Below are positions 2,548-37,867 of a stretch of DNA of 64,000 nucleotides, one piece after another. The DNA comes from an uncultured SAR86 cluster bacterium. GTDB taxonomy: Bacteria; Pseudomonadota; Gammaproteobacteria; Magnimaribacterales; Magnimaribacteraceae. How positions within the stretch are numbered: position 1 is the stretch's first letter; the number at the start of each line of letters is the position of its first letter. Under the pieces are notes generated by a model. That model was not told the DNA's origin and did not search any database. It saw only the letters and a list, made by a program, of their open reading frames with translations. The stretch lies in the NCBI GenBank assembly GCA_902514295.1, contig CABXQE010000002.1, forward strand, positions 9,938-73,937. Direction: 5' to 3'. The translations under genes were made by a program, and so were the position numbers.

Positions 2548-2572
2548 AAGGAATCATTAATATTTAAGAAAT

Positions 2573-3982: not shown

Positions 3983-3992
3983 GCTTTTTTTT

Positions 3993-4070: not shown

Positions 4071-4129
4071 TTTAATGTCTATTAAAAGAAATTCATTTAA
4101 TGTAACCTAGCAATTGATAGCATAAAATT

Positions 4130-4456: not shown

Positions 4457-5244
4457 TAAAAAGTCCTCGCGCTACCTCCGTCGACCTGCACGGCCAAACC
4501 AGTCATATAGTTTGCTTTTTCAGAAGCCAGAAATGTAATTAATGCAGATAGGTCAGTGGCTTCACCAATCCTTTGTAAGGGGATATTCTTAGCTATGGCT
4601 TCTTCGAGCTCTTTCTTATCTTTTCCGGTGGATTTAGATTGAGCAGTTAAGATTTCTTCAATTCTTTCAGTTTTTGTTGTCCCAGGGCAAACAGTATTTA
4701 CAGTTATTCCAAACGGAGCGACTTCATCAGATAAAGCTTTAGCCCATCCAAGAACACCCATCCTTAAGCTGTTAGAAAGAAATAATCCATTAACAGGTGT
4801 TTTTACCGAAACTGAAGAGATATTTATGATTCTTCCCCATTTTTTCTTCTTCATATCAGGTAAAACCAGTCTTGAGAGCCTTATTGATGACATCATGGTA
4901 GCGTTAAATGCCTTTTGCCAGTCTTCATCATCTAATTGCTCAAAAGTGCTTGGAGGGGGCCCTCCATTATTGTTAATTAAGATATCTATAGATTGAAACT
5001 CTTTCTTCGATTCCTTAAATAATCTCTTAATATCATCTTCAGAGCTTAGATCTGTCTCTAAACCCAACACATCAACTTCTGTTGTTTCTTCAATTTCCTT
5101 TTTAACGGCATTAATTTTATCTTGATCTCTAGAGCAAATTACTAGATTAACTCCTTCTTTAGCTAAATCTACGGCTGCAGCCTTCCCTAGTCCTTGACTG
5201 GAAGCGCAAACAATAGCGTTTTTTCCTTTTAATGAAAGTTCCAT
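4453..5244 (-). CDS. SDR family oxidoreductase (FabG-like)
   Basis: N-terminal nucleotide-binding region CASSQGLGKA, NNNGG motif, classical SDR length (263 aa). Confidence 0.85.
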   Translation of the reverse strand: MELSLKGKNAIVCASSQGLGKAAAVDLAKEGVNLVICSRDQDKINAVKKEIEETTEVDVLGLETDLSSEDDIKRLFKESKKEFQSIDILINNNGGPPPSTFEQLDDEDWQKAFNATMMSSIRLSRLVLPDMKKKKWGRIINISSVSVKTPVNGLFLSNSLRMGVLGWAKALSDEVAPFGITVNTVCPGTTKTERIEEILTAQSKSTGKDKKELEEAIAKNIPLQRIGEATDLSALITFLASEKANYMTGLAVQVDGGSARTFY

Positions 5245-8474: not shown

Positions 8475-8479
8475 TAGTC

Positions 8480-20178: not shown

Positions 20179-20281
20179 GTTCTGCTCTTTTTATATCTAT
20201 GGTTTTAGTATAGATCTAACCTCAGATGGTAGAATTGCATTGTAGATTGTATCTTGAGAATCATATTTGTCGAAAAAACAC

Positions 20282-21289
20282 ATGAAGAGTAAAAATATTT
20301 CTGTATTAGGTGGAGGAAGTTGGGGGACTGTTCTGGCAAATTTAGCTTCACGTAATCAACACAACGTAACTTTATGGATGAGAGATTCTGAAGTTGTTGA
20401 AGAGGTCAATAAATCTAAAAGGAACTCAAAATACTTACCTGAACTTAAGCTTGAAGGAAATATTAACGCTACTGATGATATTTCTTTAATTAATAATTCT
20501 GAGATGGTTATATTTTGCATCCCAAGTGATTCTTTTAGAGAAGTTTCTAAAAAGGCCTCTGAACACATAAATAAAAGTGTTCAGCTTGTTACTGCAACTA
20601 AAGGCGTAGAAAAAGATAAATTTAATTTAATGAGCCAGGTTCTTAATGAGTATATGAGCAATAATCCAGTAGGAATACTTAGCGGCCCCAATTTAGCTGA
20701 AGAAATAGCAACCAAACATTTGTCAGGAACAGTTATTGCAAGTAAAGACAAAGCTCTTCAACAAAATGTAATAGATATTCTAGGATCAGATTTCTTTAGA
20801 GTTTATGAAAATGATGACCCATATGGAGTTGAGATGGGAGGAGCAATTAAAAATATTTATGCCATAGCTTGCGGGGTAGCTGATGGCCTTAATTCTGGGG
20901 AGAACACTGTAGGAATGATTATGACAAGAGGTCTAGGTGAAATGAGTAGATTGGCAGTGGAGTTAGGGGCAAATCCTCAAACATTTTTAGGATTATCTGG
21001 AGTAGGTGATTTAATTACAACATGCGCTTCGCCGTTAAGTCGCAACCATAAATTTGGAAAATATATTGGTGAAGGGCTTTCAGTTAAAAGTGCGACAGAC
21101 AAAATAGGTCAAACTGTTGAAGGCCTAAAGACTCTAAAAGTAGTCAAAGTTTTATCTGATGAAAGAAATATTAATATGCCAATAGTAGATTCTCTATACA
21201 AAATCATCTATAAAGGAGACAACCTTAACGGTTCTATTCAAAATATTTTGGGTGAGGATCTGGTTAAGGATGTAGAATTTTTTAAATAA
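20282..21289 (+). CDS. gpsA: NAD(P)H-dependent glycerol-3-phosphate dehydrogenase
   Basis: VLGGGSWGT, GAIKNIYAIA, typical length. I preferred the ATG at 20282 over the track's TTG at 20267. Confidence 0.92.
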   Translation: MKSKNISVLGGGSWGTVLANLASRNQHNVTLWMRDSEVVEEVNKSKRNSKYLPELKLEGNINATDDISLINNSEMVIFCIPSDSFREVSKKASEHINKSVQLVTATKGVEKDKFNLMSQVLNEYMSNNPVGILSGPNLAEEIATKHLSGTVIASKDKALQQNVIDILGSDFFRVYENDDPYGVEMGGAIKNIYAIACGVADGLNSGENTVGMIMTRGLGEMSRLAVELGANPQTFLGLSGVGDLITTCASPLSRNHKFGKYIGEGLSVKSATDKIGQTVEGLKTLKVVKVLSDERNINMPIVDSLYKIIYKGDNLNGSIQNILGEDLVKDVEFFK

Positions 21290-21293: not shown

Positions 21294-21635
21294 ATGGCCA
21301 AAGACGATAAAGAAAAAATTACTGATGTAGATTCTGAAGAATTTATTGACAGCGAAGAATGGAAAGAGAATCTGCTTAAGCAAGGAAAGTGGTTAAGACT
21401 ATTATGGATGATAGGCTTTTCGTTTATCTATTATCTTTCTATGACGGTTTTATGGATAATTGTGTTAATTCAATTTTTGTTCGTACTCTTGACAGATAAA
21501 AGAAGCTCCAACGTAACCAAAGTATCTCAAGGCTTTAGAGATTACATGGTTCAAATTTTAGATTACATAAATTATCACTCTAGTGAGAAACCTTTCCCGT
21601 TTAGCGATTTTCCTAATTCTAAGGAGGAAAAGTAG
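21294..21635 (+). CDS. small membrane protein (DUF4389-like)
   Basis: Acidic N-terminus, two TM helices, and a C-terminal ...YINYHSSEKPFPFSDFP tail that resembles DUF4389 proteins from memory. Confidence 0.5.
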   Translation: MAKDDKEKITDVDSEEFIDSEEWKENLLKQGKWLRLLWMIGFSFIYYLSMTVLWIIVLIQFLFVLLTDKRSSNVTKVSQGFRDYMVQILDYINYHSSEKPFPFSDFPNSKEEK

Positions 21636-21644: not shown

Positions 21645-22580
21645 ATGAAAGACTTTAAAAATAAAATTGCCGTGGTCACTGGAGGTGGCACAGGGATGGG
21701 AAGGGAACTTGTTCTGCAGTTAGCAGAAGAAGGATGCGACGTAGCTATGTGCGACGTTATTGCTGAAAACATGGAAGAAACTTTTGAACTTGTGACCAAA
21801 CAATCACCAGATGTATTAGTTACGAAACACACATGCGATGTATCTGATGAAGAACAGGTCTTAAAATTTAAAGATGAAGTTTTATCGGAGCATAAAACTG
21901 AAACTATAAATCTTCTTTTTAATAATGCCGGAATAGGAGGGGGAGCAAGTTTTGTAACTGGCTCAAGAGAAGAATGGGAAAGGTGTTTCGCTGTTTGTTG
22001 GTACGGGGTTTACTATTGCTCTCGAGCATTTATCCCTCATATTGTTTCCAGTGAAGAAGGGCATGTGGTCAATACAAGCAGCGTTAATGGATTTTGGGCT
22101 AGTCTAGGAGGAACGCCTCATACTTCCTACTCTGCCGCCAAATTTGCTGTAAAAGGTTTTAGTGAATCTTTAATAGATGATTTCCGTTTGAATGCTCCTC
22201 ATGTCGGCGTTTCAGTAGTGATGCCAGGACACATAGGTACTTCTATAGCAATTAATACCGGAAAAATATTAGGGGGAGAAAGGACAGAGGAGGATTGGGA
22301 AATGGTGAAACAGAATATGATAAAACTTGGAGCCCCTGTTCACAATCAGTCCATAGACCAGATCAAACAGATGATACAAGAAAGGACAGATTCTTTTGCT
22401 GAGACGGCTCCCACTTCTTCATCTGAAGCTGCAAAAGTAATTTTGGATGGAGTTAAAGATAATAAATGGAGAATATTGATCGGCGACGATGCTAAAGCAA
22501 TTGATGAAATGGTAAGGAGAGATCCTGAAGAAGCATATAATATTACCTTTCAAGGAGATAAAAGAGAGGAAGCAGGATGA
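21645..22580 (+). CDS. SDR family oxidoreductase, long form (311 aa)
   Basis: TGGGTGMG, NNAG, YSAAKFAVKGFSESL, plus a roughly 90-aa C-terminal extension. Confidence 0.88.
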   Translation: MKDFKNKIAVVTGGGTGMGRELVLQLAEEGCDVAMCDVIAENMEETFELVTKQSPDVLVTKHTCDVSDEEQVLKFKDEVLSEHKTETINLLFNNAGIGGGASFVTGSREEWERCFAVCWYGVYYCSRAFIPHIVSSEEGHVVNTSSVNGFWASLGGTPHTSYSAAKFAVKGFSESLIDDFRLNAPHVGVSVVMPGHIGTSIAINTGKILGGERTEEDWEMVKQNMIKLGAPVHNQSIDQIKQMIQERTDSFAETAPTSSSEAAKVILDGVKDNKWRILIGDDAKAIDEMVRRDPEEAYNITFQGDKREEAG

Positions 22581-23488
22581 AAACTTTTAAAGATAAAGTA
22601 GCTGTCATAACAGGAGCTGGTTCTGGAATGGGTCGTTACTTAGCGGTTTTATTAGCGAAAGATGGAGCTGACGTGGTTGTTTGTGACGTCAATCAGGAGA
22701 CCTTAAATGAGACTGTGGAAATGTTAAGGCAATACAACGTATCTGTATCTTCTCATATTTTGGACGTAGCTGATAAGGAAGCCATCCAAGCTCTGCCTGA
22801 AAAGGTTATCGAGCAACACGGCAAAGTTGATTTAGTTTTTAATAATGCAGGTGTAACCGCTGGGTCTCATTTTAAAGATATGGATGAAGAAAATTGGGAT
22901 TGGGTGATGGGTATAAATTTAGAAGGTGTAGTTAATAGCACCAGAGCATTTATACCTCATATGATTGATAGACCTGAAGCAGCGATAGTAAATACTTCTT
23001 CTATTTTTGGGATGGTCGCAGTTCCGGGTCAAACTGTTTACCACGCTACTAAATTTGCGGTAAGAGGATTCACTGAAAGCCTTGCTATGGAAATGTCTCA
23101 ATCTAATCCTAATTTACAAGTCCATTGTGTGCATCCCGGTCATATAGGTACCAACATTGCTGCTACTGCAAGAATGGATGAAGATGAATTTAACAAACAG
23201 TTAGAAGAGCAAGATAAACTTCCCAGTATATTTACACGCAACGCTCCAAAAAGTTTAGAAGAAATGGGCGATCAATTCAGAGAGGGAGGAATGCACCCCA
23301 GTAGAGCTGCAAGCATTATTTTAAATGGGGTAAAGAAAAACAAAAGCAGAATATTTATCGGTTTAGATGCAAAATTATTAGACCTTTCGCAACGCTTATT
23401 TCCTAAGCATTATCATAAAACTTGGCCATTATTTATGCCATTGATGATGATGTTCAGAGACAAGAAACCCCTTAAATCACTTGATTAA
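22577..23488 (+). CDS. SDR family oxidoreductase, long form, paralog of the preceding gene
   Basis: TGAGSGMG, NNAG, YHATKFAVRGFTESL, HPGHIGTNIA (the neighbour has MPGHIGTSIA). ATGA start/stop overlap. Confidence 0.88.
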   Translation: MKTFKDKVAVITGAGSGMGRYLAVLLAKDGADVVVCDVNQETLNETVEMLRQYNVSVSSHILDVADKEAIQALPEKVIEQHGKVDLVFNNAGVTAGSHFKDMDEENWDWVMGINLEGVVNSTRAFIPHMIDRPEAAIVNTSSIFGMVAVPGQTVYHATKFAVRGFTESLAMEMSQSNPNLQVHCVHPGHIGTNIAATARMDEDEFNKQLEEQDKLPSIFTRNAPKSLEEMGDQFREGGMHPSRAASIILNGVKKNKSRIFIGLDAKLLDLSQRLFPKHYHKTWPLFMPLMMMFRDKKPLKSLD

Positions 23489-23839
23489 TTTTTTATACGT
23501 CGAGTAGTTAGGGTTATCTACGGCTATTTTATTCTTTGATAGAAGTATCAATAGATTTTTCAATTCTTCATCTGATAAATCTAAGTCTCCATTCTTAATC
23601 AGGTTCGAAAGTTCTTTGGTTGTTAGATCATCTGATTTGATGATATTTGACATAACCTTAATAACTTCTTCAGACAGTTGTTCCCCTTGATCAATCTCCC
23701 TCTGAACCATACCAAGTACATTATTCGTAATTCTTAATTTAAATGCTAAATGCGGAGGTAATTCATCTTTAATTTTAGTATCTAAGAAATCCATCACTGC
23801 TTTTATTAGTTCACTACTAGTTGGTCTATCAAAAATCAT
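23477..23839 (-). CDS. small helical protein coupled to the APH-fold kinase (LvaB-position / DUF6285-like)
   Basis: 120 aa. The start overlaps the kinase stop (TAATG) and follows GGAGGTGA. The family name is from memory of small proteins that follow this kind of kinase. Confidence 0.55.
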   Translation of the reverse strand: MIFDRPTSSELIKAVMDFLDTKIKDELPPHLAFKLRITNNVLGMVQREIDQGEQLSEEVIKVMSNIIKSDDLTTKELSNLIKNGDLDLSDEELKNLLILLSKNKIAVDNPNYSTYKKLIK

Positions 23840-24822
23840 TATTCACCTCCTAAAAATAATAGATCGACAATATCTATTTCAGTTTCAGAAACCCTTCTGC
23901 CAATTGCTGCCTTTTCTATGGAATTGATTGTTCTGTTTAAATGCGCGTAAGCTTGAATGAGACAAATTACTCCCCATCTGAATGTTCCAAATACTTGCCA
24001 ACACTTCACCATTTCTTTATTGACCTTTAACTTGCTAATCGAATTGTAACCTTCAAGCAAGTCTTCTAGTTCTCCAAAACCCCCTACAACTTTATCGTTT
24101 TTACCGAATCGCCAAGAGTTACCACAGACCCAACCTAAATCTTGAAGAGGGTTTCCTATATGGGCCAGTTCCCAGTCTATGATTGATTGAAGCCCCTCTC
24201 CATTAACAATTATGTTTCCTAACCTAAAATCTCCATGCACTAGACTTTCTTGAAAATTACTAAAGTCTTGTTCTTTTAACCAAAGATAAGCGTATTCAAA
24301 AACAGGGGAGGGTTGCTCAAAAGATTGATAGGTTGCGTAGAGGTCTTCAAGTTGATCTTCAGCTGGTTTTTTAGGTAAGAAGGAGAAATTATCAATATCA
24401 ACATTGTGAACTTTAGCAATAGCTTCACCGCATTGATAAGCCAATAAAGGAAGTGCCTTTTTATATTCTTTGTCTCTTAGTATTTTTCTTGCAATGGTTT
24501 CTCCTTCAACAAAATGCATTATGTAAGAGTCTCCTAACTCTTCTTCGTTCTTAGAGACTGCTAATATTATTGGTACGGGTGCACCTGCTTTAATTACTTC
24601 CTTTTGTATTCTGGCTTCGTCTGCAGTTTTTATTGCAAGAGGCCCTTCTATACCTGAGCCCCTTCTAAGAATCATCTTTGTAGTTTGTTTAGCGTTAGAA
24701 ACTTCAAATTTCCAGATCTCTTTAGAGGCGCCTCCTGTAAGAGGCTCAAGATTAGAAACTTTTCCTTCTATACCTACTTCAAGTAGTTTTTTGGAAAGCG
24801 ATGATGCTAATTCTTCTTGCAT
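23839..24822 (-). CDS. phosphotransferase (aminoglycoside-phosphotransferase/APH fold), LvaA / ACAD10-11 kinase-domain-like
   Basis: Catalytic loop HGDFRLGNIIV (HxDxxxxN) and IDWELAH metal-binding Asp motif; 327 aa. Confidence 0.85.
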   Translation of the reverse strand: MQEELASSLSKKLLEVGIEGKVSNLEPLTGGASKEIWKFEVSNAKQTTKMILRRGSGIEGPLAIKTADEARIQKEVIKAGAPVPIILAVSKNEEELGDSYIMHFVEGETIARKILRDKEYKKALPLLAYQCGEAIAKVHNVDIDNFSFLPKKPAEDQLEDLYATYQSFEQPSPVFEYAYLWLKEQDFSNFQESLVHGDFRLGNIIVNGEGLQSIIDWELAHIGNPLQDLGWVCGNSWRFGKNDKVVGGFGELEDLLEGYNSISKLKVNKEMVKCWQVFGTFRWGVICLIQAYAHLNRTINSIEKAAIGRRVSETEIDIVDLLFLGGE

Positions 24823-26033
24823 TAATTAGATTCTAAGCTGGCATCTCTTTCACCAAAATCCCATCCAGCACCATTATTCTGATAGTTCTTTAAAATTCTC
24901 CTAGCAACAGATTGGACATGAACCTCATCGGGTCCGTCATAAATCCGAGCCTCCCTAGCATGCCTGTACATTAAACTAAGAGGAGTATCGTCAGTAAGAC
25001 CTTTAGCTCCATGAACTTGTATGGCTCTATCTATAACGTTATGAACCATTTTCGCACCCACAACCTTAATCATCCCTATCTCAATTCTTGCGTCATCTCC
25101 TTGATCTATTCTTTTTGCAGCATCTAGAGTAAGTTGCCTACTAGCTTGAATTTCACAAGCACTATCAAATACAAATTTTTGTAACAATTGCTTATCAGCC
25201 AGTGAGCTTCCAAACGCTTCTCTTTCATGCATTCTTAAACACATAAGGTCAAATGCTCTTTGAGCTTGACCCAACCATCTCATGCAATGAAAGATTCTTC
25301 CTGGACCTAACCTCCTTTGAGCGATGAGGAACCCTTGACCTCTAGGACCCAATAGATTTTCTTCTGGTACTCTTACGTTATCATAATCGACTTCATAATG
25401 GCCTCCGTGACCACCGTGTATCCCTAATACAGGAGTATCTCTTACGATTTTGTACCCAGGATTATCTGTAGGAACAATAATCATACTGAAAGCTCCGTGG
25501 CTAGGAACATCTAATTCAGTTCTACACATTACCGTTGTGTAAGTAGCTCCGGCAGCTCCAGAGGTAAACCATTTTCTTCCATTAATCACCCACTCATCAC
25601 CTTCCAAAATTCCTGTGGTTTGAAGTTGAGTCGGGTCAGAACTAGAAATGTCTGGTTCAGTCATTCCAAAACTTGGAAAGATTTCTCCAGCAACTAGCGG
25701 TTCTAGGTATTCATCGCGCCATCTTTTAGAAGCAAATTCTCTTAACATGATTGAATCTTGCAAAGAGTGAGTCCCTAAGGCAACCATAGCGCTAGAGGAC
25801 CTTCCAATTACCTCATTTATGTATACGTACTCCATAAAAGGCATCCCTTGGCCACCTATATCTTCAGGATGTCCGAGTGCCCATAGAGAATTATCTTTGG
25901 CCTTTTGCATTAATTCTTGCATTTTCTTTGTAGACTCATCATCTCTCTTATGAAGAATCTCTTCCGCAGGATAAACTTCGTTTTCTACGAATTCTTTAAC
26001 TTCTTTTCTTACTTTCTTCCAATCTCTACTCAT
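24822..26033 (-). CDS. acyl-CoA dehydrogenase, FadE2 / ACAD10-11 subfamily (LvaC-like)
   Basis: ACAD fold. The C-terminal RIYDGPDEVH is the variant typical of the FadE2/ACAD10/ACAD11 clade. I chose the ATG at 26033, preceded by GGAGGG; the track starts at the TTG at 26045. Confidence 0.88.
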   Translation of the reverse strand: MSRDWKKVRKEVKEFVENEVYPAEEILHKRDDESTKKMQELMQKAKDNSLWALGHPEDIGGQGMPFMEYVYINEVIGRSSSAMVALGTHSLQDSIMLREFASKRWRDEYLEPLVAGEIFPSFGMTEPDISSSDPTQLQTTGILEGDEWVINGRKWFTSGAAGATYTTVMCRTELDVPSHGAFSMIIVPTDNPGYKIVRDTPVLGIHGGHGGHYEVDYDNVRVPEENLLGPRGQGFLIAQRRLGPGRIFHCMRWLGQAQRAFDLMCLRMHEREAFGSSLADKQLLQKFVFDSACEIQASRQLTLDAAKRIDQGDDARIEIGMIKVVGAKMVHNVIDRAIQVHGAKGLTDDTPLSLMYRHAREARIYDGPDEVHVQSVARRILKNYQNNGAGWDFGERDASLESN

Positions 26034-26045
26034 TGTTCCCTCCAA

Positions 26046-27782
26046 CTAAAATTTTATAGGCTTTTTAAATCCTTTTAACTTCATTCCTTTTCTTGAAATC
26101 TCTATATCTGTCTCTCCGTTAAGCACGTTTTCATTAAATTTATAAGTAACCTGATAGTCTCCTTTTAAACATGACCTATTATATTGAGAAGATTTCTTTT
26201 GAGTCTCTCCTATATTCTTTAAATATTGATTATATTTATTTTTAGTAACTAAGCTTTTCATTTTTATTTGAGTCTCTTCAGGGGAAAGAATAAAAGCCGA
26301 AGCATTGTTTCCTCCAAATCCTTTGGCATTTAAGAAACACCCTTTATAAAAATTTTGTTCTTCCGTTTTATCTTCAAGAAGAATGTCTAAGTTTTCGGAG
26401 TAAACATCATCGGCTAAAGTGTCGGTAGAATGAATCCCAGGTATTATTCCTTTATTCCAAGTTCCAAGTGAAGCTATAAGCTGATCTCCTGAAGCCGGAG
26501 CCATGCTATGACCGAGATAACTTTTTATTGCCGTAATAGGCCAGTTCTTTATGCCAAAAGTAGTTGCTATCTCATTAAGTATGTGTGACTCAGTAGTCCT
26601 ATTTGCAGGAGTTCCAGTTCCATGAGCATGTACAAATGTATTTTGCCTTAAGAGCTTAAGGCCTAAATCTTTCTCGGCGTCTGCCGCGCATTTAGCCATG
26701 GTTATATAATTACCTACACCCGGTCCACTAATTGAGCTTTTATGTCCATCTGAATGAGAGTGAACTGAAGCAACAGAGCCAAAAATGTCAGCTCCGAGTT
26801 CTATCGCAAGTTTAGCTTCCATTAGGATTACAAATTGAGATGATTCACCTAAAACCATACCAGCATTATTACCAAAAGGGCGACAAGCTCGAGTTTGAAT
26901 AGGCCCTGAATCAATTGATTCTCCATTTGAAGCTTGAAGTTCAAGCATTCTCTTATCATCAGATAAGGCAGACATGGCAAAGAAACCATCTATTATTTCA
27001 GGTGTTATAGGGGCTTCTGCTGCTCCTACAATAGATACTTTAGAGCTACCTGATTCTATAGCTTCTTTTCCCATTTGAAGGTTATAAAGGAAAGTTGCGC
27101 AAGCCCCTACGCTATGACCGGTTCTTCCTACATTACCAAGTACATATGCGTTAATGAAATCTGCAGACATTTCAACTAACCCTAAAGCCAAATTTTTTGA
27201 GCTTGCCCTTGAACCCTTGATTCTAGATTGCATAAGACCACCAAAACCAAAACTATCCAATTGACCAATTGCAGCACCACTGAATACTGAAACTTCATCA
27301 GGATTTATTTTTTCCTGAACTTCTTCCCACTTAAATCCAAGCTGACCAATGGCATCACTCATGCCAAAAATAGTCATTTGTAAGGCTTTGGGGTGCTGTC
27401 TTGCGGGGTAATAAGTTGATGGATCAAAACCTTTGGGTAGTTGGCCAGCAGCACTGGCTTTTATTTGATCTAGGATCACACCATCTGGATCATAGACTTC
27501 CTTATCAATTTTTCGAATGAAACAGTCTTTTCTAATTGAGGACAAATTTTCAAGTAAATATTCTTTAAGATTAATGGAGTCTCCGGAAACCGTCTCCCAG
27601 CCACTACCAACAGTTTCTATCTTGCCTTGTAAAATAGCTAAATCTTGAAGAACTTCTAATTGTTCTTTTTCTTGAAGTGAATTAAATACTAGATTTTTAT
27701 ATCCTAAGAAGTTTGAAGACCTTCCCGATGAGTTAATACCTCCGAATCCTGAGATTACTGCTAAAGGTTTATTCTTGCTCAT
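26046..27782 (-). CDS. beta-ketoacyl synthase, KAS I/II catalytic triad, enlarged FabY-like form (578 aa)
   Basis: Cys-His-His triad contexts GACATF, HAHGTGTP, GHSM. The N-terminus AVISGFGGINSSGRSS and the roughly 65-aa extra N-terminal length (active-site Cys near residue 228 by my count) resemble P. aeruginosa FabY from memory. Confidence 0.8.
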   Translation of the reverse strand: MSKNKPLAVISGFGGINSSGRSSNFLGYKNLVFNSLQEKEQLEVLQDLAILQGKIETVGSGWETVSGDSINLKEYLLENLSSIRKDCFIRKIDKEVYDPDGVILDQIKASAAGQLPKGFDPSTYYPARQHPKALQMTIFGMSDAIGQLGFKWEEVQEKINPDEVSVFSGAAIGQLDSFGFGGLMQSRIKGSRASSKNLALGLVEMSADFINAYVLGNVGRTGHSVGACATFLYNLQMGKEAIESGSSKVSIVGAAEAPITPEIIDGFFAMSALSDDKRMLELQASNGESIDSGPIQTRACRPFGNNAGMVLGESSQFVILMEAKLAIELGADIFGSVASVHSHSDGHKSSISGPGVGNYITMAKCAADAEKDLGLKLLRQNTFVHAHGTGTPANRTTESHILNEIATTFGIKNWPITAIKSYLGHSMAPASGDQLIASLGTWNKGIIPGIHSTDTLADDVYSENLDILLEDKTEEQNFYKGCFLNAKGFGGNNASAFILSPEETQIKMKSLVTKNKYNQYLKNIGETQKKSSQYNRSCLKGDYQVTYKFNENVLNGETDIEISRKGMKLKGFKKPIKF

Positions 27783-27863
27783 CGATAAAAATTCTTTTTA
27801 CTTAAGTGCCTATTGTATGGCAATATTTATTAAAGAATATCAATTTATAACAAGGGAGAAGTT

Positions 27864-29399
27864 ATGCACCCGGGCATCAACGGAAAAAAATTTCCAAATA
27901 AACCTGCTTTAATAATGAACGGAAGCGGCAAGGTAGTTACTCATGGAGAGTTAAATGATTTATCTAATCAAGGAGCTCAGCTTTTTAGGTCTTTAGGTTT
28001 AGTTCCAGGTGATTCCATAGCGATCATGCTAGAGAACCATTTTTTGTTCTTTCCGATAATATTTGCAGCTTGGCGAAGCGGACTTAGGTACACAGCAATA
28101 AGTTGGAGGCTCCAGCCGGATGAAGTTGAATACATTGTTAGAGATTGTGAAGCTAAAGTTTTTATAACCTCTAAATTTTTAGAAGAAACTGCTTTGAATT
28201 TAGATTCCTCTCTCAAAGATGTTCATAAGTTTATGCTTGATGGCTCGACTAATAATTTTCTTTCTTATGAAGAATCTATCGCCTTACAGCCTGAAGATCC
28301 CATTTCTGATGAGTGTGTTGGAGGTCCAATGCTCTATTCTTCAGGAACTACAGGCAGACCAAAGGGAGTTAGTAGAGAATTAAGTTTAGACCCTTTGCCC
28401 TATTCTAAAGAAAATGGAGATCCAAGCTTATCTAGGGTTCTATTACTTTATGGAGCTAACGAAGACAGTATCTACCTTTCTCCAGCGCCTATGTATCATT
28501 CCGCACCATTGAACTTCTGCACTGCATTTCTAGCTGAAGGCTCTACTTGCGTAATTTTAGAGAAATTTGATGCTGAAGGTGCTTTGCAAGCAATAGAAAA
28601 ACATAAGGTAACGCATTCGCAATGGGTACCAACTATGTTCGTAAGATTTTTAAAATTTGACCCTTCAGTCAGAACTCAATTTGATTTATCTAGTCATCAA
28701 GTTGCAATACACGCTGCCGCACCTTGCCCTATAGAAGTTAAAGAGCAAATGATAGATTGGTGGGGCCCTATACTTTATGAATATTACGCAGGAACAGAGT
28801 TTAATGGCATGACTTTTATAAATTCTGAGGAATGGTTAAGTCATAAAGGTTCTGTTGGGAAATCTCTTTTTGGAGCACTAGACATTCTTGATGAAAATGG
28901 AGAGCAACTGCCTCCAGGAGAAACCGGCGGTGTTTACTTTGGAGGGGAAACGGCTACAACCTTTAAATATCATAATGATGAAGAAAAAACTAAAGAAGCA
29001 ATGACTAAACAAGGTTATAGCACTTTAGGGGATGTGGGTTATCTAGATGAAGAAGGATATTTATATCTAACTGATCGTAAGTCTTTCATGATTATTTCTG
29101 GAGGAGTAAACATTTATCCCAAAGAAACAGAAGATGCTCTAGTAATGCATCCTAAAGTAGCTGACGTAGCCGTTTTTGGGGTTCCAAACGATGAAATGGG
29201 TGAAGAAGTTAAGGCGGTAATTCAACCTGAGAATATGGCTGATGCAGGTCCAGATTTAGAAGCTGAACTGATGGCTTACTGCAAAGAAAAAATCTCCTCC
29301 GTTAAATGCCCTAAATCCATTGATTTTGAAAAGGAGTTACCTCGGCACCCAACTGGTAAACTTTACAAGCGTCTTTTAAAAGACAAGTATTGGCCTTAA
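27864..29399 (+). CDS. acyl-CoA synthetase (AMP-forming adenylate-forming enzyme)
   Basis: AMP-binding signature YSSGTTGRPKG, YGxTE-like YYAGTEF, GDVGYLDEEGYLYLTDR. Confidence 0.9.
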   Translation: MHPGINGKKFPNKPALIMNGSGKVVTHGELNDLSNQGAQLFRSLGLVPGDSIAIMLENHFLFFPIIFAAWRSGLRYTAISWRLQPDEVEYIVRDCEAKVFITSKFLEETALNLDSSLKDVHKFMLDGSTNNFLSYEESIALQPEDPISDECVGGPMLYSSGTTGRPKGVSRELSLDPLPYSKENGDPSLSRVLLLYGANEDSIYLSPAPMYHSAPLNFCTAFLAEGSTCVILEKFDAEGALQAIEKHKVTHSQWVPTMFVRFLKFDPSVRTQFDLSSHQVAIHAAAPCPIEVKEQMIDWWGPILYEYYAGTEFNGMTFINSEEWLSHKGSVGKSLFGALDILDENGEQLPPGETGGVYFGGETATTFKYHNDEEKTKEAMTKQGYSTLGDVGYLDEEGYLYLTDRKSFMIISGGVNIYPKETEDALVMHPKVADVAVFGVPNDEMGEEVKAVIQPENMADAGPDLEAELMAYCKEKISSVKCPKSIDFEKELPRHPTGKLYKRLLKDKYWP

Positions 29400-30062
29400 A
29401 TGAGCACTAAAAGATCACTGGTCGCTGGCTCCACTGGCCTAGTTGGAGAGGCGTTAGTTAAGCAGTTAGCTTCAAATAAGAATTATGTAAAAACCCTCTC
29501 TAGAAATGAGCTAAGTCCTTCTAATCCTTTAGTTGATAACATTAAAGTAGATTTTGAGAATTTAAATTTGTACCAAGAGCACTTTAAAGAAGTAGATGAA
29601 GTTTACATATGCCTTGGGACAACTATCTCAAAAGCTGGCTCCAAAGAGGCCTTTGGAAAAGTTGATATAGACTATTGTTTAGAAACAGCTAAACAGGCGC
29701 GTAATGCAGGAGTAAGAAACCTTTCCTTGATTACTTCAGTGGGGGCTGATTTAGATTCTTCTAATTTCTACCTAAGGACCAAAGGAATTATTGAAGATAA
29801 AATCTCACAATTAGATTTTCAATCACTCTCCATTCACAGACCAGGTCTTTTAATAGGACCTAGAAAAGAAATGAGACTCGCTGAATTCATTGGACAAAAG
29901 ATCCACCCCGTTTTAGTTAACCCATTACTATTTGGGAATCTATCTAAATACAAGTGCATAAAAGTTGAGATTTTGTCTAGGGCTATGATGAATTGCTCTG
30001 GTTTAGAAAAAGGAACTAAATATTATTACTACAACGATTTTATTGAAAAGGGAAGAAGTTAA
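29400..30062 (+). CDS. NAD(P)H-binding atypical SDR / NmrA-HTATIP2-like protein
   Basis: N-terminal VAGSTGLVG Rossmann motif; 220 aa. The ATG directly abuts the acyl-CoA synthetase stop. Confidence 0.7.
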   Translation: MSTKRSLVAGSTGLVGEALVKQLASNKNYVKTLSRNELSPSNPLVDNIKVDFENLNLYQEHFKEVDEVYICLGTTISKAGSKEAFGKVDIDYCLETAKQARNAGVRNLSLITSVGADLDSSNFYLRTKGIIEDKISQLDFQSLSIHRPGLLIGPRKEMRLAEFIGQKIHPVLVNPLLFGNLSKYKCIKVEILSRAMMNCSGLEKGTKYYYYNDFIEKGRS

Positions 30063-30063
30063 A

Positions 30064-31524
30064 TTAACCTGCTTTTTTAAACTTCAAATCTGAATCTTCT
30101 ATACTTTTAAATCTGACTTGAAAAAGATCTTTTAGATAATTTTGAGTGTTTATCCAAGGGTCTTTTGAACCTTGCTTGGGTAGCGTGTGAGCAACTCTTT
30201 GTATGTAACCAGAAGTTAAATCTAGAAAATCGCTATCGGCAGCTACGTCTTCACCAGCTTCGGGACAAAAATAATCCATGCCTTTTTTGTCTAGAAGATT
30301 TATCAACCTACAAGCGTACTCACTGGTTAGATCAGCTCCCAATGTCCATGAAGCTGTTGTGTATCCAAATGTCGCCACAAGATTAGGCACATCACTAAAC
30401 ATCATGGTTTTGTATTGTATTTTTTTTGAAATATCTAAAGTTTCATTATCAATCTTAATATCTATTCCGTTTAAGAGCCTCATATTCAGACCTGTCGCTG
30501 TAATAATAATGTCAGCTTCGAGTACTTTACCCGAATCCAGTTTAATTCCTTTTGTTGAGAACTCATCTATGGTGTCTGTAACCACTGAAACCTTTCCGGA
30601 ATTTATAGCTTCAAACATGTCACCATTCGGTACTAAACACATGCGTTGATCCCAAGGCATATATTTAGGCGTGAAGTGTTTATCGATATCGTAATCAGGG
30701 CCTAAAAGATCTTTAACTCCATTAATTAGCATCTCTTTATATTTAAGTGGTTTTTTCTTAACCTGAGATACAAAAAAACGACCCAAAAGAATATTTTTCC
30801 ATCTAACCAGGAAATAGCCGATCTTGTCTGTAGTAAATCTTTTAAGAAATTCATCTAATCCACTTCGGTCTGGTGCAGCCATGTAGTAAGTAGGTGATCT
30901 TTGTAGCATGGTGATGTGTGATACTTTCCCTGCCATCGAGGGAATAATAGTTACAGCTGTTGCGCCACTTCCAACCACAACCACTTTCTTGTCAGAATAA
31001 TCCAGATCTTCAGGCCATTTCTGAGGGTGAATAATTTGACCTTCAAAGTTATCTCTACCTTTAAATTCAGGAGTATATCCTTCATCATAATTGTAATACC
31101 CCCCACATAAATAAAGAATATTACAACTCATAACTTCCACAGAATTGTTAGATTGATCTTCTACTTCTAGACTCCAAAGAGCTTCGCTAGTATTCCAAGA
31201 GGCACTAATTACTTTCTTTTGAAATTGAATTTTTTCTTCAAGGTTATTTTCTTCTACCGCTTCTTTTAGGTATTGAATAATTGATGGGCCATCAGCAATT
31301 GTTTTAGGGTCTGTCCAGGGCTTAAATCTAAAACCCATGGTGTGCATATCAGAATCCGATCTTATGCCTGGGTACTTGAATAGATCCCAAGTTCCTCCAA
31401 TATTCTCTCTTCCTTCAAGAATGGTGAATGTTTTTTGAGGACAGGTTTTTTGAAGATTATAGGCAGCACCAATTCCTGAAATACCTGCTCCAACAACGAC
31501 AACGTCTTTATGATTTATTTCCAT
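30064..31524 (-). CDS. type I Baeyer-Villiger (flavin-containing) monooxygenase
   Basis: FAD motif GAGISG, BVMO fingerprint FEGQIIHPQKWP (FxGxxxHxxxWP), NADPH motif GSGATA. Confidence 0.88.
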   Translation of the reverse strand: MEINHKDVVVVGAGISGIGAAYNLQKTCPQKTFTILEGRENIGGTWDLFKYPGIRSDSDMHTMGFRFKPWTDPKTIADGPSIIQYLKEAVEENNLEEKIQFQKKVISASWNTSEALWSLEVEDQSNNSVEVMSCNILYLCGGYYNYDEGYTPEFKGRDNFEGQIIHPQKWPEDLDYSDKKVVVVGSGATAVTIIPSMAGKVSHITMLQRSPTYYMAAPDRSGLDEFLKRFTTDKIGYFLVRWKNILLGRFFVSQVKKKPLKYKEMLINGVKDLLGPDYDIDKHFTPKYMPWDQRMCLVPNGDMFEAINSGKVSVVTDTIDEFSTKGIKLDSGKVLEADIIITATGLNMRLLNGIDIKIDNETLDISKKIQYKTMMFSDVPNLVATFGYTTASWTLGADLTSEYACRLINLLDKKGMDYFCPEAGEDVAADSDFLDLTSGYIQRVAHTLPKQGSKDPWINTQNYLKDLFQVRFKSIEDSDLKFKKAG

Positions 31525-32552: not shown

Positions 32553-35384
32553 ATGGGGAAAATTATGAAAATTAAGTTAATTGCCTACTTGGCAACCTTT
32601 TCTTTTCTTTTTTTTAACGCTTCGTTTGTTTTTTCAGCTGATGATGATGAAGATGCTGACGAAGTGGTGGTGACTGGATCTTATATCTCAAGATCCAACC
32701 AAAATAAATCTGTTCCTGTTGATGTAATTAGTTCTGATGAGTTGAATGAGCAAGGTAATCCTAGCATCACTGATCTAATTTTAAATCTGCCTTCTATGTC
32801 TGGTTCACATAACCAGCAAGATCAGTTTCAAGGCAGTGGAGTCGCAACTGGAATGAAGAACATAAATATAAGAGGTATGGGTTCTGATAGAGGGCTAGTA
32901 CTTCTTAATGGAAAAAGAATTGCAGCTGCTGGAGTTAGATCTTCAAAGTCTGCCGTTTATCCAGTTGATGTAGGAAATTTTCCTATGATAGCTATGGAAA
33001 GGTTAGAACTTCTTAAAAACGGTGGTGCTGTTACTTATGGTTCAGATGCCGTAACTGGAGTGCTTAATTTCATTACTAGAAAAGGTTTTGACGGGTTTGA
33101 AATTTCTGTTAACCACTCTGACTACGATGGAAGTGATGACGGAGATCAAAATCTAGGTTTTATTTGGGGAACTGCCAGCGGAGGTAATTCCTTAATGATG
33201 GCTTTTGAATATGACAAGCGAGGCAGATTACCAGTATGGAAAAGAAGCTTTGCTGACTATAGTTCACCAAGTGGTTGGCCGTTAGGTATATCGTCTTTTG
33301 GAAACCCAGGTGCTTACGGCACAGCCAAAGGTTGGCCAGGTACCTTGTACGGTGGTTTAACACCAGATCCATTGTGTGGATATTCTTCTGAATTCACCAG
33401 TTCTTTTGCATTAAGTCTTGGTCGATGTGGTTATAACTACACACCATTTTTTAATTTAATAGATGAACAAGAAAGACTAAAATTCTTTACTCAATTTGAA
33501 TTCCAAGTTGATGACAGTACAACAGTTTATGGAGATTTCCTTTTTTCAAAATTAGAAGGTTGGTACAACACATCTCCTAGTTTCCCTCACACAAATCCTG
33601 GCTCTTCAAATTATTGTACAAATACAGATGACGTACTAAGTTGTACTTCAGCAATTCCTTACTTTAATTTTGTGCCCCTTCATAACCCAGGTGCAATAGA
33701 CTTTTTGGCTGGTTTATCTCAAGAAAAAAGAGATGAATTTACTGCAGCTGGAGGTATTCAATGGTGGGGAAGAACTTTGGCGGTTGCCGGTCCTTCTCAA
33801 AGTGGTAAACGTTTCCATGAAACGGCGCGTTTCTTGGTAGGAGTAGTTAAAAGGTTAGGCGATGTTGAAATGGACGCTTCAATGTCATACACAAACCACA
33901 CCGTAGATGGATTTACTTATGATCCTTTAGCGGCGAGAGTACAGGACTCATTATCAGGTTTAGCTGGTCACGGTTGTCCTAGAGTAGGTGATGACCCTTG
34001 GTCTTCGGCTAATGATGCTCTTAGAGGCGATAATGCCTTAGGTTGTTATTACTATAATCCGTTTGGTTCTGCTATTAATGCAACACCGGGAAGTGCACTT
34101 TATAACGACCCTTCAGTTAAGAAATATTATGACGGTTTATCTTCTGGAGTAACTCAAGTTGAACAACTTGTTTCAGAAGTTATCTTTACCGGAGAATCAG
34201 ATATGGAATTAGCCGGTGGTAATGTTTCATGGGCTGCAGGAGCACAATACAGATGGTGGGATAGTAAGTATGACCCTACTGGAGATAATAGAGTAGATGG
34301 TCCTCAGAGATCACCTTTTGTATTCCTGGGCGTATCAACTAATAGTTACATTGAAACAAGAGTGCATTCACTCTTTGGTGAATTGAACCTACCTGTTTCT
34401 GATTCTACGCAAGTTGAGTTAGGAATAAGGCATGAAGACTATGGTGCTGACACAGTTACTAAACCTAAGTTAGCTATAATTTCAGAACTTAGTGACAAAG
34501 CGACATTTAGAGCTTCGTATGAGCAAACTTTTAGAGTACCTACAATGCCTACTCAAGAAACAACTTCTCTTGAGCTCTACGCTCCAGCTGGTGAATATAT
34601 TCAAATTAAGACACCAATTCCAACTGCCCTAGGACCTGAAGAATCTACTAATATAGGTTTAGGGTTCATATTTAGACCTGTAGATGGAATGACAGTTAAT
34701 TTAGATTATTATTCCTTAGCTTTAGAAGGGCCATTTAACAGAGAAGCTGCAACTTGTGCTTGCTCAGTTAAAATGACAGCAGACGGTACTGTTTATGACG
34801 CTGCAACAGACACGCCTCAAGCCATAACAAGCATAATTGCTGAGTTAATTAACGGGGATGATGTAGACACTGCAGGAATAGATCTAGAAGTTAATTATTC
34901 ACATGTTAGTGATGTAGGCGTATGGTCTGTTGGAGGAAATATGAATCATATTTTAGAATATGAAGTTTCAGGAACAGCAGATGGAAGCACTTACGACGCA
35001 GCTGGACTGTATAATTTAAGATCTACAGTTCTTCCTATTGAAGTGAGATCAATGCCTGATCTTAAGATGAATGCTTACGTAGGACTTCTAACTAATGCTG
35101 GATACAATGCGAGGTTGTATCTTAGATTTATTGACGAAGTTAAGATTCCTTCCACGTTCGATTCTATTTCATCTTTTCCTGGTATGGATTCGATAGATGA
35201 TCACATGACTTATGACTTTCACGTTAGCAAGTCTGTAATGGATGACAGTATGGATATAACTTTGTCAGTTATTAATTTAACAGATGAGGATCCTCCGATG
35301 GCTCCTCATGAGTTAGCTTATGATGCTTATACCCATAACCCTCTAGGAAGAATATTAAAGGTAGGATTTAGATATAACCTTTAG
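32553..35384 (+). CDS. TonB-dependent outer-membrane receptor (943 aa)
   Basis: Signal peptide, SADDDEDADEVVVTGS TonB-box region, plug motifs (IRGMGSDRGLVLLNGKR; GAVTYGSDAVTGVLNF). Alternative start at 32565. Confidence 0.9.
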   Translation: MGKIMKIKLIAYLATFSFLFFNASFVFSADDDEDADEVVVTGSYISRSNQNKSVPVDVISSDELNEQGNPSITDLILNLPSMSGSHNQQDQFQGSGVATGMKNINIRGMGSDRGLVLLNGKRIAAAGVRSSKSAVYPVDVGNFPMIAMERLELLKNGGAVTYGSDAVTGVLNFITRKGFDGFEISVNHSDYDGSDDGDQNLGFIWGTASGGNSLMMAFEYDKRGRLPVWKRSFADYSSPSGWPLGISSFGNPGAYGTAKGWPGTLYGGLTPDPLCGYSSEFTSSFALSLGRCGYNYTPFFNLIDEQERLKFFTQFEFQVDDSTTVYGDFLFSKLEGWYNTSPSFPHTNPGSSNYCTNTDDVLSCTSAIPYFNFVPLHNPGAIDFLAGLSQEKRDEFTAAGGIQWWGRTLAVAGPSQSGKRFHETARFLVGVVKRLGDVEMDASMSYTNHTVDGFTYDPLAARVQDSLSGLAGHGCPRVGDDPWSSANDALRGDNALGCYYYNPFGSAINATPGSALYNDPSVKKYYDGLSSGVTQVEQLVSEVIFTGESDMELAGGNVSWAAGAQYRWWDSKYDPTGDNRVDGPQRSPFVFLGVSTNSYIETRVHSLFGELNLPVSDSTQVELGIRHEDYGADTVTKPKLAIISELSDKATFRASYEQTFRVPTMPTQETTSLELYAPAGEYIQIKTPIPTALGPEESTNIGLGFIFRPVDGMTVNLDYYSLALEGPFNREAATCACSVKMTADGTVYDAATDTPQAITSIIAELINGDDVDTAGIDLEVNYSHVSDVGVWSVGGNMNHILEYEVSGTADGSTYDAAGLYNLRSTVLPIEVRSMPDLKMNAYVGLLTNAGYNARLYLRFIDEVKIPSTFDSISSFPGMDSIDDHMTYDFHVSKSVMDDSMDITLSVINLTDEDPPMAPHELAYDAYTHNPLGRILKVGFRYNL

Positions 35385-36968: not shown

Positions 36969-37024
36969 CAATAAAAATACTTTTTTTTTGATTTATGATA
37001 GTCTTAAATCAAAAGGATTATCAC

Positions 37025-37867
37025 ATGAAAAAAATTTACCAAGCCTCTTTAACAGTTCTTATTCTTGGGTCACTGTTATCTTGTTCAAATGAAAAAGTAG
37101 CTGATGATTTGCAGAAACATGAAGAAGGACCTTTCTATGTTGAATTTGTTTCTTGCACCAAAGGCGATGAATACAGTAACTCCAACCTTTCAAAGATGAT
37201 TGATGGTTGGAGAATGTTGCCTATATCCAGTGAACTAAGAGGTTCTTACTTATACGATCCCATTAAAGAAGAAAATGCCTTTGGCCCCAGTATGTGGTGG
37301 GAGCTTGAATGGGAATCAAAGGATGCAGCTGATTCAGCTTGGAATGCCTGGACTGAAAATGAAGCAGTAATGGCGTGGTCTAATGAATATCAAAATGTAA
37401 TGTCATGTGATGGGGCTGGCAGGAATGCTTGGGACATACTAATTCCAGTTTCAGCCTCCCATTTCGGTGAACTAAATCATTCTGGATATTTCTATAGCCA
37501 GTACTGGACATGCAGTTATAAAAATGGAGCTGGTAGAAATGAACTAGAAAACTTCCTTCCTATACATTCAGCCAAGATTAAATCTTCAAATCTACAAGGA
37601 ACGGGATATCATTATGGCGTATATTTTGATAGAAGATCCGTAGACGCTTCTCATTCGGATGTACAGGCAAATCTTGTATGGGGAGAATGGGCTAACTCAA
37701 AAGATGCGATGGAGTTACAAAATCAAAACTTCGCTGATAATTTTCAGGAAGTATTTGAAGAGTTTGATAAGTTAGGATCTTGTCCTGAAGAACCAGATAC
37801 TTTCAATTCTTGGATGCTATATACAAAAGACAGCCCTGATGACAGTGATTACAGTCCTAAATTTTAG
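37025..37867 (+). CDS. hypothetical Trp-rich lipoprotein with an internal two-fold repeat
   Basis: Lipobox LGSLLSCS after MKKIYQASLTVLI. The two halves share the FY-x5-C, W-x-EW-x-SKDA and SC-x7-W patterns. Start at 37025 rather than the track's 36995. Confidence 0.65.
   Translation: MKKIYQASLTVLILGSLLSCSNEKVADDLQKHEEGPFYVEFVSCTKGDEYSNSNLSKMIDGWRMLPISSELRGSYLYDPIKEENAFGPSMWWELEWESKDAADSAWNAWTENEAVMAWSNEYQNVMSCDGAGRNAWDILIPVSASHFGELNHSGYFYSQYWTCSYKNGAGRNELENFLPIHSAKIKSSNLQGTGYHYGVYFDRRSVDASHSDVQANLVWGEWANSKDAMELQNQNFADNFQEVFEEFDKLGSCPEEPDTFNSWMLYTKDSPDDSDYSPKF

Follow-up and report, generated by a model that had tools for sequence, protein, structure and literature searches.

A gene trio in a SAR86 acyl-CoA gene cluster probably encodes a divergent relative of the LvaABC and ACAD10/11 'phosphorylate, then eliminate' systems

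The closest described relatives of the locus considered here are the levulinate (lva) operon of the Pseudomonas putida group, lvaRABCDEFG, and the mammalian proteins ACAD10 and ACAD11, in which a 4-hydroxyacyl-CoA kinase domain is fused to a phosphate-eliminating acyl-CoA dehydrogenase domain. They share a chemistry of the form 'phosphorylate, then eliminate', through which 4-hydroxy fatty acids enter beta-oxidation. LvaA/LvaB, the only characterised member of a clade of kinases partnered by LvaB, acts on 4-hydroxyvaleryl-CoA (PMC6692424, citing Rand 2017). In ACAD11, residues R626, H634/R637 and D753 make up a phosphate-stabilising cluster and the catalytic aspartate, a set unique to ACAD10, ACAD11 and LvaC, and ACAD10/11 are inactive on ordinary acyl-CoAs (PMC12440821). 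Here we compare with these systems a group of nine genes within a 64,000-nucleotide stretch of DNA (the window) from the chromosome of an uncultured SAR86 cluster bacterium (Magnimaribacterales). Three of the nine, encoding an acyl-CoA dehydrogenase (ACAD), an APH-fold kinase and a small DUF6285 protein and hereafter called the trio, probably constitute, as judged from sequence comparison, a diverged form, in SAR86, of the LvaA/LvaB/LvaC and ACAD10/11 system, with the other flanking genes as neighbours. So placed, it adds a divergent new example to a kind of system already described, in an ecologically important organism, SAR86 being among the most abundant bacteria of the surface ocean and thought to live largely on lipids via beta-oxidation.

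The functional unit comprises three translationally coupled genes on the minus strand, in the order acad-kinase-lvaB. The ACAD gene (24822-26033, 403 residues) and the kinase gene (23839-24822, 327 residues) overlap by one base, as do the latter and the gene of the small subunit (23477-23839, 120 residues). For the ACAD the true start codon is the ATG at 26033, which has GGAGG as its ribosome-binding site and lies 12 nt past the stop codon of the preceding fabY gene, rather than the TTG at 26045. The kinase matches the Pfam family APH (E 2.7e-30) and the small protein matches DUF6285 (PF19802; 62.9 bits against a cut-off of 28.1). NCBIfam gives neither the ACAD nor the kinase a specific name.

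Among solved structures, the closest ACAD domains are those of the ACAD10/11 group (8v3u, 2wbi): mouse ACAD11 (8v3u) scores 248 bits at 40% identity and human ACAD11 237 bits, against 182 bits for the best ordinary ACAD. All four key residues are kept, with R241, H249-C-M-R252 and D366 aligning with R626, H634-C-M-R637 and D753 of ACAD11. The stretch RRLGPGRIFHCMR (residues 240-252) contains R241, H249 and R252, and the phosphate-binding cluster is thus present. Residue D366 lies within the motif YDGPDEVH; in the same column the mutant chain 8v3v (D753N) has an asparagine and Glu-type ACADs have a glutamate. LvaC, compared, like all lva proteins here, through the copy on the P. aeruginosa plasmid p12939-PER (locus L170) as a stand-in for the P. 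putida-group operon, shares the motifs R...HCMRW and YDGPxEVH.

In neighbour-joining trees of 22 ACADs, three of them Glu-type (100 bootstraps; a small taxon sample and a distance method), Asp-type and Glu-type enzymes were split at 100/100. The Asp-type ACADs fell into three clades, with all splits again at 100/100: an ACAD11-type clade (mouse ACAD11, M. abscessus 4hr3, Burkholderia, Bradyrhizobium and Pseudoalteromonas); its sister, a window-type clade (SAR86, Spongiibacteraceae, Nonomuraea and a Rhodococcus plasmid); and, outside these two, an LvaC-type clade (LvaC, Thermus and Acinetobacter). The window ACAD is therefore bracketed by two biochemically characterised eliminases with the same activity. 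By pairwise comparison it is also nearer to ACAD11 than is LvaC, whose plasmid copy (L170 8337-9509) reaches 195 bits and 34% identity against 8v3u. Published identities of LvaC with ACAD10/11 are higher, at 56-62% (PMC11342911), a gap that could be explained if the published values refer to similarity or to another sequence. Within the window-type clade, the Nonomuraea and Spongiibacteraceae ACADs are 64-69% identical to the window ACAD and have identical signature motifs. The member on the plasmid of Rhodococcus sp. USK13 (L085 6929-8164) is an Asp-type ACAD of 51% identity with the motif altered to ILDGADEVH; its surroundings, which hold genes for Rieske oxygenase, CoA-transferase, lipid-transfer protein and MaoC but none for a kinase, look like a context of steroid or side-chain degradation.

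The catalytic and metal-binding motifs of the kinase, H196-G-D198, N203 and D216-W-E218, are invariant or nearly so among 44 relatives. Its best solved relatives are 3dxp and the kinase domain of ACAD11, with which HGD and DWE align (D220 in ACAD11). Identity to LvaA is 28-30% (E 7e-45), and in the kinase tree the window protein groups with LvaA in the LvaB-partnered clade, split at 100/100 from ACAD10/11-like kinases; those of Burkholderia, Acinetobacter and Pseudoalteromonas, which have no small partner, are 18-22% identical to it. The sequence comparisons point to a distant member of the LvaA lineage, not a close orthologue. The locus differs from ACAD10/11 in that its kinase is a separate polypeptide of the other APH clade (about 20% identical to bacterial ACAD10/11-like kinases) and has a separate LvaB-family partner with no ACAD10/11 counterpart, and in lacking a HAD domain.

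The identity of the small partner rests on a plasmid search with the window kinase, which retrieved a complete lva operon on the P. aeruginosa megaplasmid p12939-PER, in the order prpR-like regulator, kinase, lvaB, ACAD, short-chain dehydrogenase/reductase (SDR), ligase, DUF485 and acetate symporter. The RefSeq product name of L170 7927-8283 is '4-hydroxypentanoyl-CoA kinase subunit LvaB', and the 90%-identity cluster of this LvaB contains P. putida group proteins. The named LvaB matches PF19802 too (85.3 bits) and aligns with the window DUF6285 protein over the full length; the window subunit is recognisable through the family profile only. DUF6285, listed in Pfam as of unknown function, is thus the LvaB family, the partner subunit of a hydroxyacyl-CoA kinase. 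Because DUF6285 and the kinase clade are shared, the pairings of kinase with LvaA and of small protein with LvaB are correct at the family level. A placement of LvaA with the Burkholderia/ACAD10-like kinases, which are linked to a histidine phosphatase and have no small partner, and the view that LvaB could not be compared were both overturned by this plasmid operon with its named lvaB.

The kinase family is large, comprising 567 clusters at 50% identity in a representative protein library (E <1e-30). In 80 genomes DUF6285 is almost always encoded next downstream of the kinase or is fused to it. Fusions of 440-510 residues, with DUF6285 at the kinase C-terminus, are numerous (for example P0124, P0126, P0128, P0136 and P0140), and P0140 (605 residues) adds a C-terminal ASCH domain. 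Literature searches on DUF6285/PF19802 and PP_2792 found nothing relevant, and both the equation of DUF6285 with LvaB and the kinase-LvaB fusions follow from the existing RefSeq naming and the published LvaA-LvaB pull-down. Together they offer a way into the function of hundreds of kinase/DUF6285 gene pairs, as yet uncharacterised, in many phyla. The preliminary description of this DNA had proposed LvaA, LvaB, LvaC and ACAD10/11 counterparts for the three proteins, and DUF6285, the kinase clade and the Arg/HCMR/Asp signature bear this out; in the trees, neither the kinase nor the ACAD falls outside the LvaA/LvaC and ACAD10/11 clades.

Full collinearity of the locus is limited to one SAR86 subclade (subclade A), in which kinase identity ranges from 59% to 95%. 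The order there is folD, a Baeyer-Villiger monooxygenase (BVMO; one or two copies), an NAD-binding protein and the CoA ligase; divergently, fabY-ACAD-kinase-lvaB; and convergently, SDR2, SDR1, DUF4389 and gpsA. A downstream glutamine-synthetase-like gene, a further SDR gene and the genes of an M48 peptidase and a patatin are just as collinear in subclade A, besides folD and gpsA. As these unrelated housekeeping genes keep their places equally well, synteny within the subclade cannot separate function from descent. Beyond subclade A the trio alone persists, in other SAR86, in Spongiibacteraceae and in many metagenome contigs. One subclade B genome has prfB-lysS-ACAD-kinase-lvaB-DUF411, another has DctM-dipeptidase-ACAD-kinase-lvaB-DctP among TRAP-transporter genes, and in the Spongiibacteraceae (UBA5047) the trio stands beside a TetR gene. 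Nonomuraea (gerenzanensis) has an ACAD-kinase pair. Thermus thermophilus HB8 (pTT27) carries ligase-SDR-ACAD-kinase-DUF6285-histidine phosphatase, and Azospirillum sp. B510 (pAB510b) SDR-ACAD-kinase-DUF6285-phosphatase.

The ACAD-kinase-DUF6285 order is thereby common to SAR86 subclades A and B, Spongiibacteraceae, Thermus and Azospirillum, and the uncharacterised cassettes of the last three resemble the window trio in their overlapping reading frames as well. In Thermus and Azospirillum the operon is larger by a histidine phosphatase and an SDR gene, to which Thermus adds a ligase; none of the Thermus, Azospirillum, Spongiibacteraceae and Nonomuraea cassettes includes FabY or a BVMO. In the lva operon, by comparison, the order is lvaA-lvaB-lvaC. 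Linkage of kinase, LvaB and ACAD was found in at least four phyla. Among 60 metagenome contigs with a window-type ACAD and at least 900 bp downstream of it, the kinase follows the ACAD immediately in 15 and lies elsewhere in the flank in 8. The neighbourhood analysis of ACAD and APH pairs suggested in the preliminary description thus showed the trio and a CoA ligase to recur, but not the other flanking genes. Kinase types and Asp-type ACAD types occur in mixed combinations across taxa (Acinetobacter, Bradyrhizobium), an argument for functional interchangeability; members of at least three Asp-type ACAD clades pair interchangeably with the two distinct lineages of kinase.

A histidine-phosphatase-family gene stands beside both kinase lineages, in Burkholderia, Pseudoalteromonas, Thermus, Azospirillum and an S. 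stutzeri lva variant (L086 3502-8113, L089 3891-8492, L171 7273-7926, L174 and L175), and is absent at the SAR86 locus. One possibility is that it proofreads or reverses the phosphorylation.

We propose that a CoA thioester is made by an acyl-CoA synthetase, probably the one encoded divergently from the trio, and that the APH-fold kinase, with its DUF6285/LvaB-like subunit and ATP, would phosphorylate the 4-hydroxyl of a 4-hydroxyacyl-CoA. The Asp-type, FAD-containing ACAD would then expel the phosphate to give a 2-enoyl-CoA, which could enter ordinary beta-oxidation. What the sequences show is that the proteins belong to these families, that the residues for catalysis and phosphate binding are kept, that the tree brackets the ACAD and that the genes stay linked; the activities and their chemistry, the substrate and its chain length are predictions from this. 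As the locus has no clear LvaD orthologue, 4-hydroxy acids are likelier substrates than 4-oxo acids; possible sources are lactones, oxidised lipids and mid-chain hydroxy acids after shortening of the chain. The likely role is to let a lipid-specialised bacterium burn 4-hydroxy fatty acids that would otherwise stall beta-oxidation. SAR86 invests very heavily in beta-oxidation (PMC11582366, PMC3358033), and a dedicated route of this kind, if real, would extend its diet to oxidised and hydroxylated lipids that ordinary beta-oxidation cannot finish. The whole layout is also found in the cultured SAR86 isolate HIMB1674 (locus L034), which makes the prediction directly testable.

Of the flanking genes, the acyl-CoA synthetase has the best claim to a part in this scheme. 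The FadD4-like protein (27864-29399, plus strand, 511 residues) matches the AMP-binding family (E 8e-61) and NF038341 at 614 bits, under the cut-off of 850, and its 26% identity to LvaE is at the generic family level. As in the lva operon, it adjoins the kinase system: in Pseudomonas, Thermus, Sulfitobacter and Variovorax the kinase-LvaB pair has a CoA ligase beside it, directly upstream in the last two, and the Variovorax ligase is 36% identical to that of the window. It is the sole flanking gene with a recurrent association in other phyla, and is a plausible activating enzyme for the substrate of the trio.

The remaining lva parallels are looser. SDR1 (21645-22580, plus strand, 311 residues; Pfam adh_short, E 7e-41) and SDR2 (22577-23488, plus strand, 303 residues; adh_short, E 3e-56) are 19% and 29% identical to LvaD, similar to their identity with any other SDR, and do not accompany the trio beyond subclade A. 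An LvaD-like role is possible, though unsupported. The SDRs end a tight plus-strand unit headed by gpsA (glycerol-3-phosphate dehydrogenase, 20267-21289), with a DUF4389 gene (21294-21635) between gpsA and SDR1, gaps of 4, 9 and -4 nt and conservation throughout subclade A, which suggests that they may have to do with glycerolipid metabolism rather than with the kinase operon. The earlier statement that every lva function has a counterpart here consequently holds for LvaA, LvaB and LvaC; for LvaD and LvaE the matches are generic. Genes for the sigma-54 regulator LvaR and the transporters LvaF/LvaG, present in L170 and L175, were not found between 14.8 and 37.9 kb of the window; what such genes characterise is the levulinate operon and not the chemistry of kinase and eliminase.

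The gene of an NAD_binding_10/NmrA-like protein (29400-30062, plus strand, 220 residues; PF13460, E 1e-8) starts right behind the ligase stop codon; it is present only in subclade A and is missing there from locus L014. The last of the nine genes encodes a short type I BVMO (30064-31524, minus strand, 486 residues). Enzymes of this type are defined by the fingerprints FxGxxxHxxxW[P/D] and [A/G]GxWxxxx[F/Y]P[G/M]xxxD and by two GxGxxG motifs; the window protein has FEGQIIHPQKWP at residue 160, GGTWDLFKYPGIRSD at 43 and the Rossmann motifs GAGISG at 12 and GSGATA at 185. Its best solved relatives are BVMOs, in an alignment confined to residues 6-215. By its length (about 490 residues) and motif it presumably resembles the short EthA/AlmA kind, from which it differs in lying in a folD unit and in being duplicated in some SAR86 genomes: several subclade A genomes carry tandem paralogues of about 517 and 484 residues (L006, L010, L011, L012 and L034; about 800-4770). 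Its synteny is restricted to subclade A, and neither synteny nor the gene-neighbourhood comparisons gave evidence tying it to the trio.

At the head of the trio's operon stands a FabY-class beta-ketoacyl synthase (KAS) of 578 residues (26046-27782, minus strand). It matches P. aeruginosa FabY (PA5174, a KAS I/II-type enzyme; PDB 4cw4) at E 1.7e-150 in two blocks spanning residues 7-577, with a core of 469 residues at 473 bits, so that the similarity runs over the full length and takes in the N- and C-terminal extensions specific to FabY, and differs from it in lacking about 57 residues between the blocks. The Cys-His-His triad is intact (GACATF, C228; HAHGTGT, H387; GHS, H425) with the surrounding motifs conserved, and in tblastn searches the protein is 40-43% identical to the products of Halomonas and Photobacterium FabY-like genes. 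The KAS is thus a true orthologue of biosynthetic FabY. In Halomonas and Photobacterium no trio, ligase, SDR or BVMO gene lies closer than 8 kb to fabY, and fabY adjoins the trio only in subclade A. The window fabY differs from these, and presumably from that of P. aeruginosa, in heading an acyl-CoA catabolic operon; co-transcription with the trio is also a difference from the lva operon. P. aeruginosa FabY initiates fatty-acid synthesis (PMC12323585, citing Yuan 2012). The window enzyme is most likely a housekeeping initiator of the same process and no component of the pathway, though co-transcribed with the trio. The proposal that a condensing enzyme and the BVMO expand the pathway was accordingly not supported, as the former is a housekeeping orthologue and the latter occurs with the trio in subclade A only.

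The 81-bp region between the divergent fabY and ligase genes contains the invariant 15-mer ATATTGCCATACAAT (27812-27826, minus-strand reading). It is identical in 8/8 aligned subclade A sequences while the flanking bases vary, occurs once per locus in 12/12 subclade A loci with the region (L001-L006, L010-L014 and L034; at about 7000 or 8213) and is found nowhere else in the window. The element combines a TATTG-N5-CAATA dyad (a 5-bp inverted repeat) with a TTGCCA -35-like hexamer, whose spacing from a TAAAAA/TAAGAC box would suit a -35 element. The 15-mer may serve as operator, as promoter element or as both. A promoter and terminator scan of this AT-rich DNA gave counts at or below chance and was not used. 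As P. aeruginosa fabY is directly controlled by the fatty-acid-responsive repressor PvrA (PMC12323585), the position of fabY may reflect shared fatty-acid-responsive control through the conserved intergenic element, and shared control of fabY and fatty-acid activation would be an ordinary explanation of their co-location.

Several observations weigh against the proposed function. All characterised enzymes lie outside the window-type clades of ACADs and of kinases, and identities to them are low (LvaA 28-30%, LvaC 34%, ACAD11 40%). The locus shows no clear LvaD orthologue, so use of 4-oxo acids is not indicated. No kinase was found in the flanks of 37 of the 60 metagenome ACAD loci; the ACAD can therefore be encoded alone, and a search of the kinase-less loci for a conserved alternative partner found none. 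Conversely, kinase-LvaB pairs in Hyphomonas and Parvibaculum have no Asp-type ACAD within 10 kb and adjoin recG, mfd and DUF502, and other pairs adjoin Glu-type ACADs. At the Sulfitobacter and Variovorax loci (L172 5959-8688 / L173 5965-8470) the ACAD after kinase-DUF6285 lacks the Asp-type motifs; that of Sulfitobacter is Glu-type, with YRITEGAEEIQ. Similarly, the Bradyrhizobium loci L041-L066 have a downstream ACAD that is Glu-type (YRITEGSEEIQ), besides an Asp-type ACAD of the ACAD11 type some 4 kb upstream. The kinases of this family may work with ACADs of more than one kind. Within SAR86 itself, locus L014 (MAG LRMED-377, on a 639-kb contig) keeps fabY-kinase-lvaB without an ACAD: at 8259-11349 the kinase starts 5 nt after fabY, and the ACAD and NAD-binding genes are cleanly absent from an otherwise retained layout. 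Finally, ACAD10-type kinase domains have also been reported to phosphorylate alkylglycerols (PMC13596139).

This last report invites the reading that the kinase and LvaB act on a lipid alcohol, a monoacylglycerol or alkylglycerol, in lipid salvage together with fabY and gpsA, with the ACAD in a separate or secondary role. Phosphorylation of 1-O-alkyl- and 1-O-acylglycerols has been reported for kinase domains of the ACAD10/11 type and for homologues from prokaryotes (PMC13596139), the trio is flanked by lipid-biosynthetic gpsA and fabY, and both L014 and the many kinase-LvaB pairs with no Asp-type ACAD nearby would fit. We nevertheless consider it improbable: the alkylglycerol data concern the other, ACAD10/11-like clade, at 18-22% identity, whereas the LvaB-partnered clade of the window kinase includes LvaA/LvaB, its only characterised member, which acts on 4-hydroxyvaleryl-CoA (PMC6692424, citing Rand 2017); the stop and start codons of the kinase overlap those of an ACAD with the phosphate-binding Arg/His/Arg cluster; and the neighbours elsewhere, CoA ligases, enoyl-CoA hydratases, thiolases and ACADs, point to CoA-ester chemistry. 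Equally unlikely in our view is a shunt in which short acyl- or enoyl-CoA products from the breakdown of hydroxy acids prime fatty-acid synthesis through FabY. It would explain why fabY heads the operon, 12 nt upstream of the ACAD on the same strand in all subclade A genomes, and it agrees with a fabY-kinase adjacency that outlasts ACAD loss in L014, with the invariant 15-mer in the shared fabY/ligase control region and with the control of P. aeruginosa fabY by PvrA (PMC12323585). Yet that adjacency is confined to one subclade with a streamlined genome, where unrelated genes routinely abut or overlap, and was seen in no other lineage examined; the ACAD, moreover, has its own ribosome-binding site. 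Co-transcription with fabY, the conserved shared control element, L014 and a large family often without an Asp-type ACAD also leave a slim chance that kinase-LvaB has, in SAR86, a role independent of the eliminating ACAD and tied to lipid synthesis or salvage, its substrate being another hydroxylated lipid or CoA ester, or its product feeding FabY-primed synthesis. The latter, if true, would shunt carbon from catabolism directly into membranes in a heterotroph that is among the most abundant in the ocean.

The model of the preliminary description, in which all nine genes serve one pathway, with the BVMO converting ketones to esters and acids, the ligase activating them, the SDRs reducing a 4-oxoacyl-CoA, kinase and ACAD following and the KAS making or breaking a C-C bond, strikes us as very unlikely. 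The genes are all lipid- or acyl-CoA-related and tightly packed, every examined genome or contig of subclade A has the complete layout, even where kinase identity is as low as 59%, the trio is accompanied by both a ligase and an SDR in Pseudomonas and Thermus and by an SDR in Azospirillum, and four Bradyrhizobium loci have weak BVMO-like matches (23% identity) about 7-9 kb from the kinase. However, folD, gpsA, the glutamine-synthetase-like gene, the M48 peptidase and patatin are as collinear in those SAR86 genomes, the trio sits among prfB-lysS/DUF411 or TRAP-transporter genes in subclade B and alone in Spongiibacteraceae, and the SDRs and the BVMO belong to the gpsA and folD units. The generic LvaD and LvaE identities, a KAS that is an orthologue of biosynthetic FabY with its triad intact, and the different fabY contexts of Halomonas and Photobacterium argue in the same direction. 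Co-conservation of the flanking genes largely failed to appear, the SDRs, NAD-binding protein, BVMO and FabY occurring with the trio in one SAR86 subclade only. Because of this subclade-only synteny, the generic identities, the FabY orthology and the Halomonas and Photobacterium contexts, we take these genes to be neighbours co-inherited in one compact SAR86 subclade and not pathway steps. At the other extreme, the locus might hold nothing special, the ACAD being just another dehydrogenase of beta-oxidation and the APH protein an unrelated kinase for small molecules or antibiotics. SAR86 genomes do have a dozen ACAD paralogues (PMC3358033), and neither protein has a specific NCBIfam name. But an aspartate in place of the catalytic glutamate, the HCMR/Arg cluster and the 100/100 clade split, the inactivity of ACAD10/11 on ordinary acyl-CoAs (PMC12440821) and a kinase-LvaB-ACAD linkage in at least four phyla make this exceedingly improbable. 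The phosphorylation and elimination of a 4-hydroxyacyl-CoA by the trio is thus the reading we prefer.

An open reading frame (ORF) check of the window and Pfam and NCBIfam profile searches showed all nine genes to be real and upheld their family assignments, with the gene content, order, coordinates and strands as first described. They fall into four transcription units, gpsA-DUF4389-SDR-SDR, fabY-acad-kinase-lvaB, ligase-NAD-binding and folD-BVMO, the BVMO gene lying 30 nt downstream of folD on the same strand. The fabY operon and the ligase diverge, the BVMO is convergent with the ligase unit, as earlier described, and the SDR unit converges on lvaB. The G+C content is flat over the whole window (0.34-0.40), and the surroundings are core chromosome, with tig-clpP-clpX-lon, ppiD, a probable fabI, folD, gpsA and several TonB-dependent receptors. 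With flat composition and housekeeping genes around it, the region is no compositional island; the phrase 'ten-kb acyl-CoA island' is valid for a thematic cluster but not for a single pathway or a compositional unit.

An exact look-up of the window kinase matched no recorded gene. At 95% identity, the kinase has a counterpart in a SAR86 single-cell genome, and near-identical copies are very numerous in marine metagenomes, a word-indexed search with the kinase being filled by sequences at least 95% identical to it. Two ORFs of the window, at 36995-37867 and 52070-52918, had no Pfam match. Elsewhere in the window (6756-10189; 11690-14638; 32553-35384; 49218-52016; 1109-2305) are genes for a tandem pair of gamma-glutamyltranspeptidase paralogues, for three TonB-dependent receptors and for the alpha subunit of a Rieske ring-hydroxylating oxygenase.

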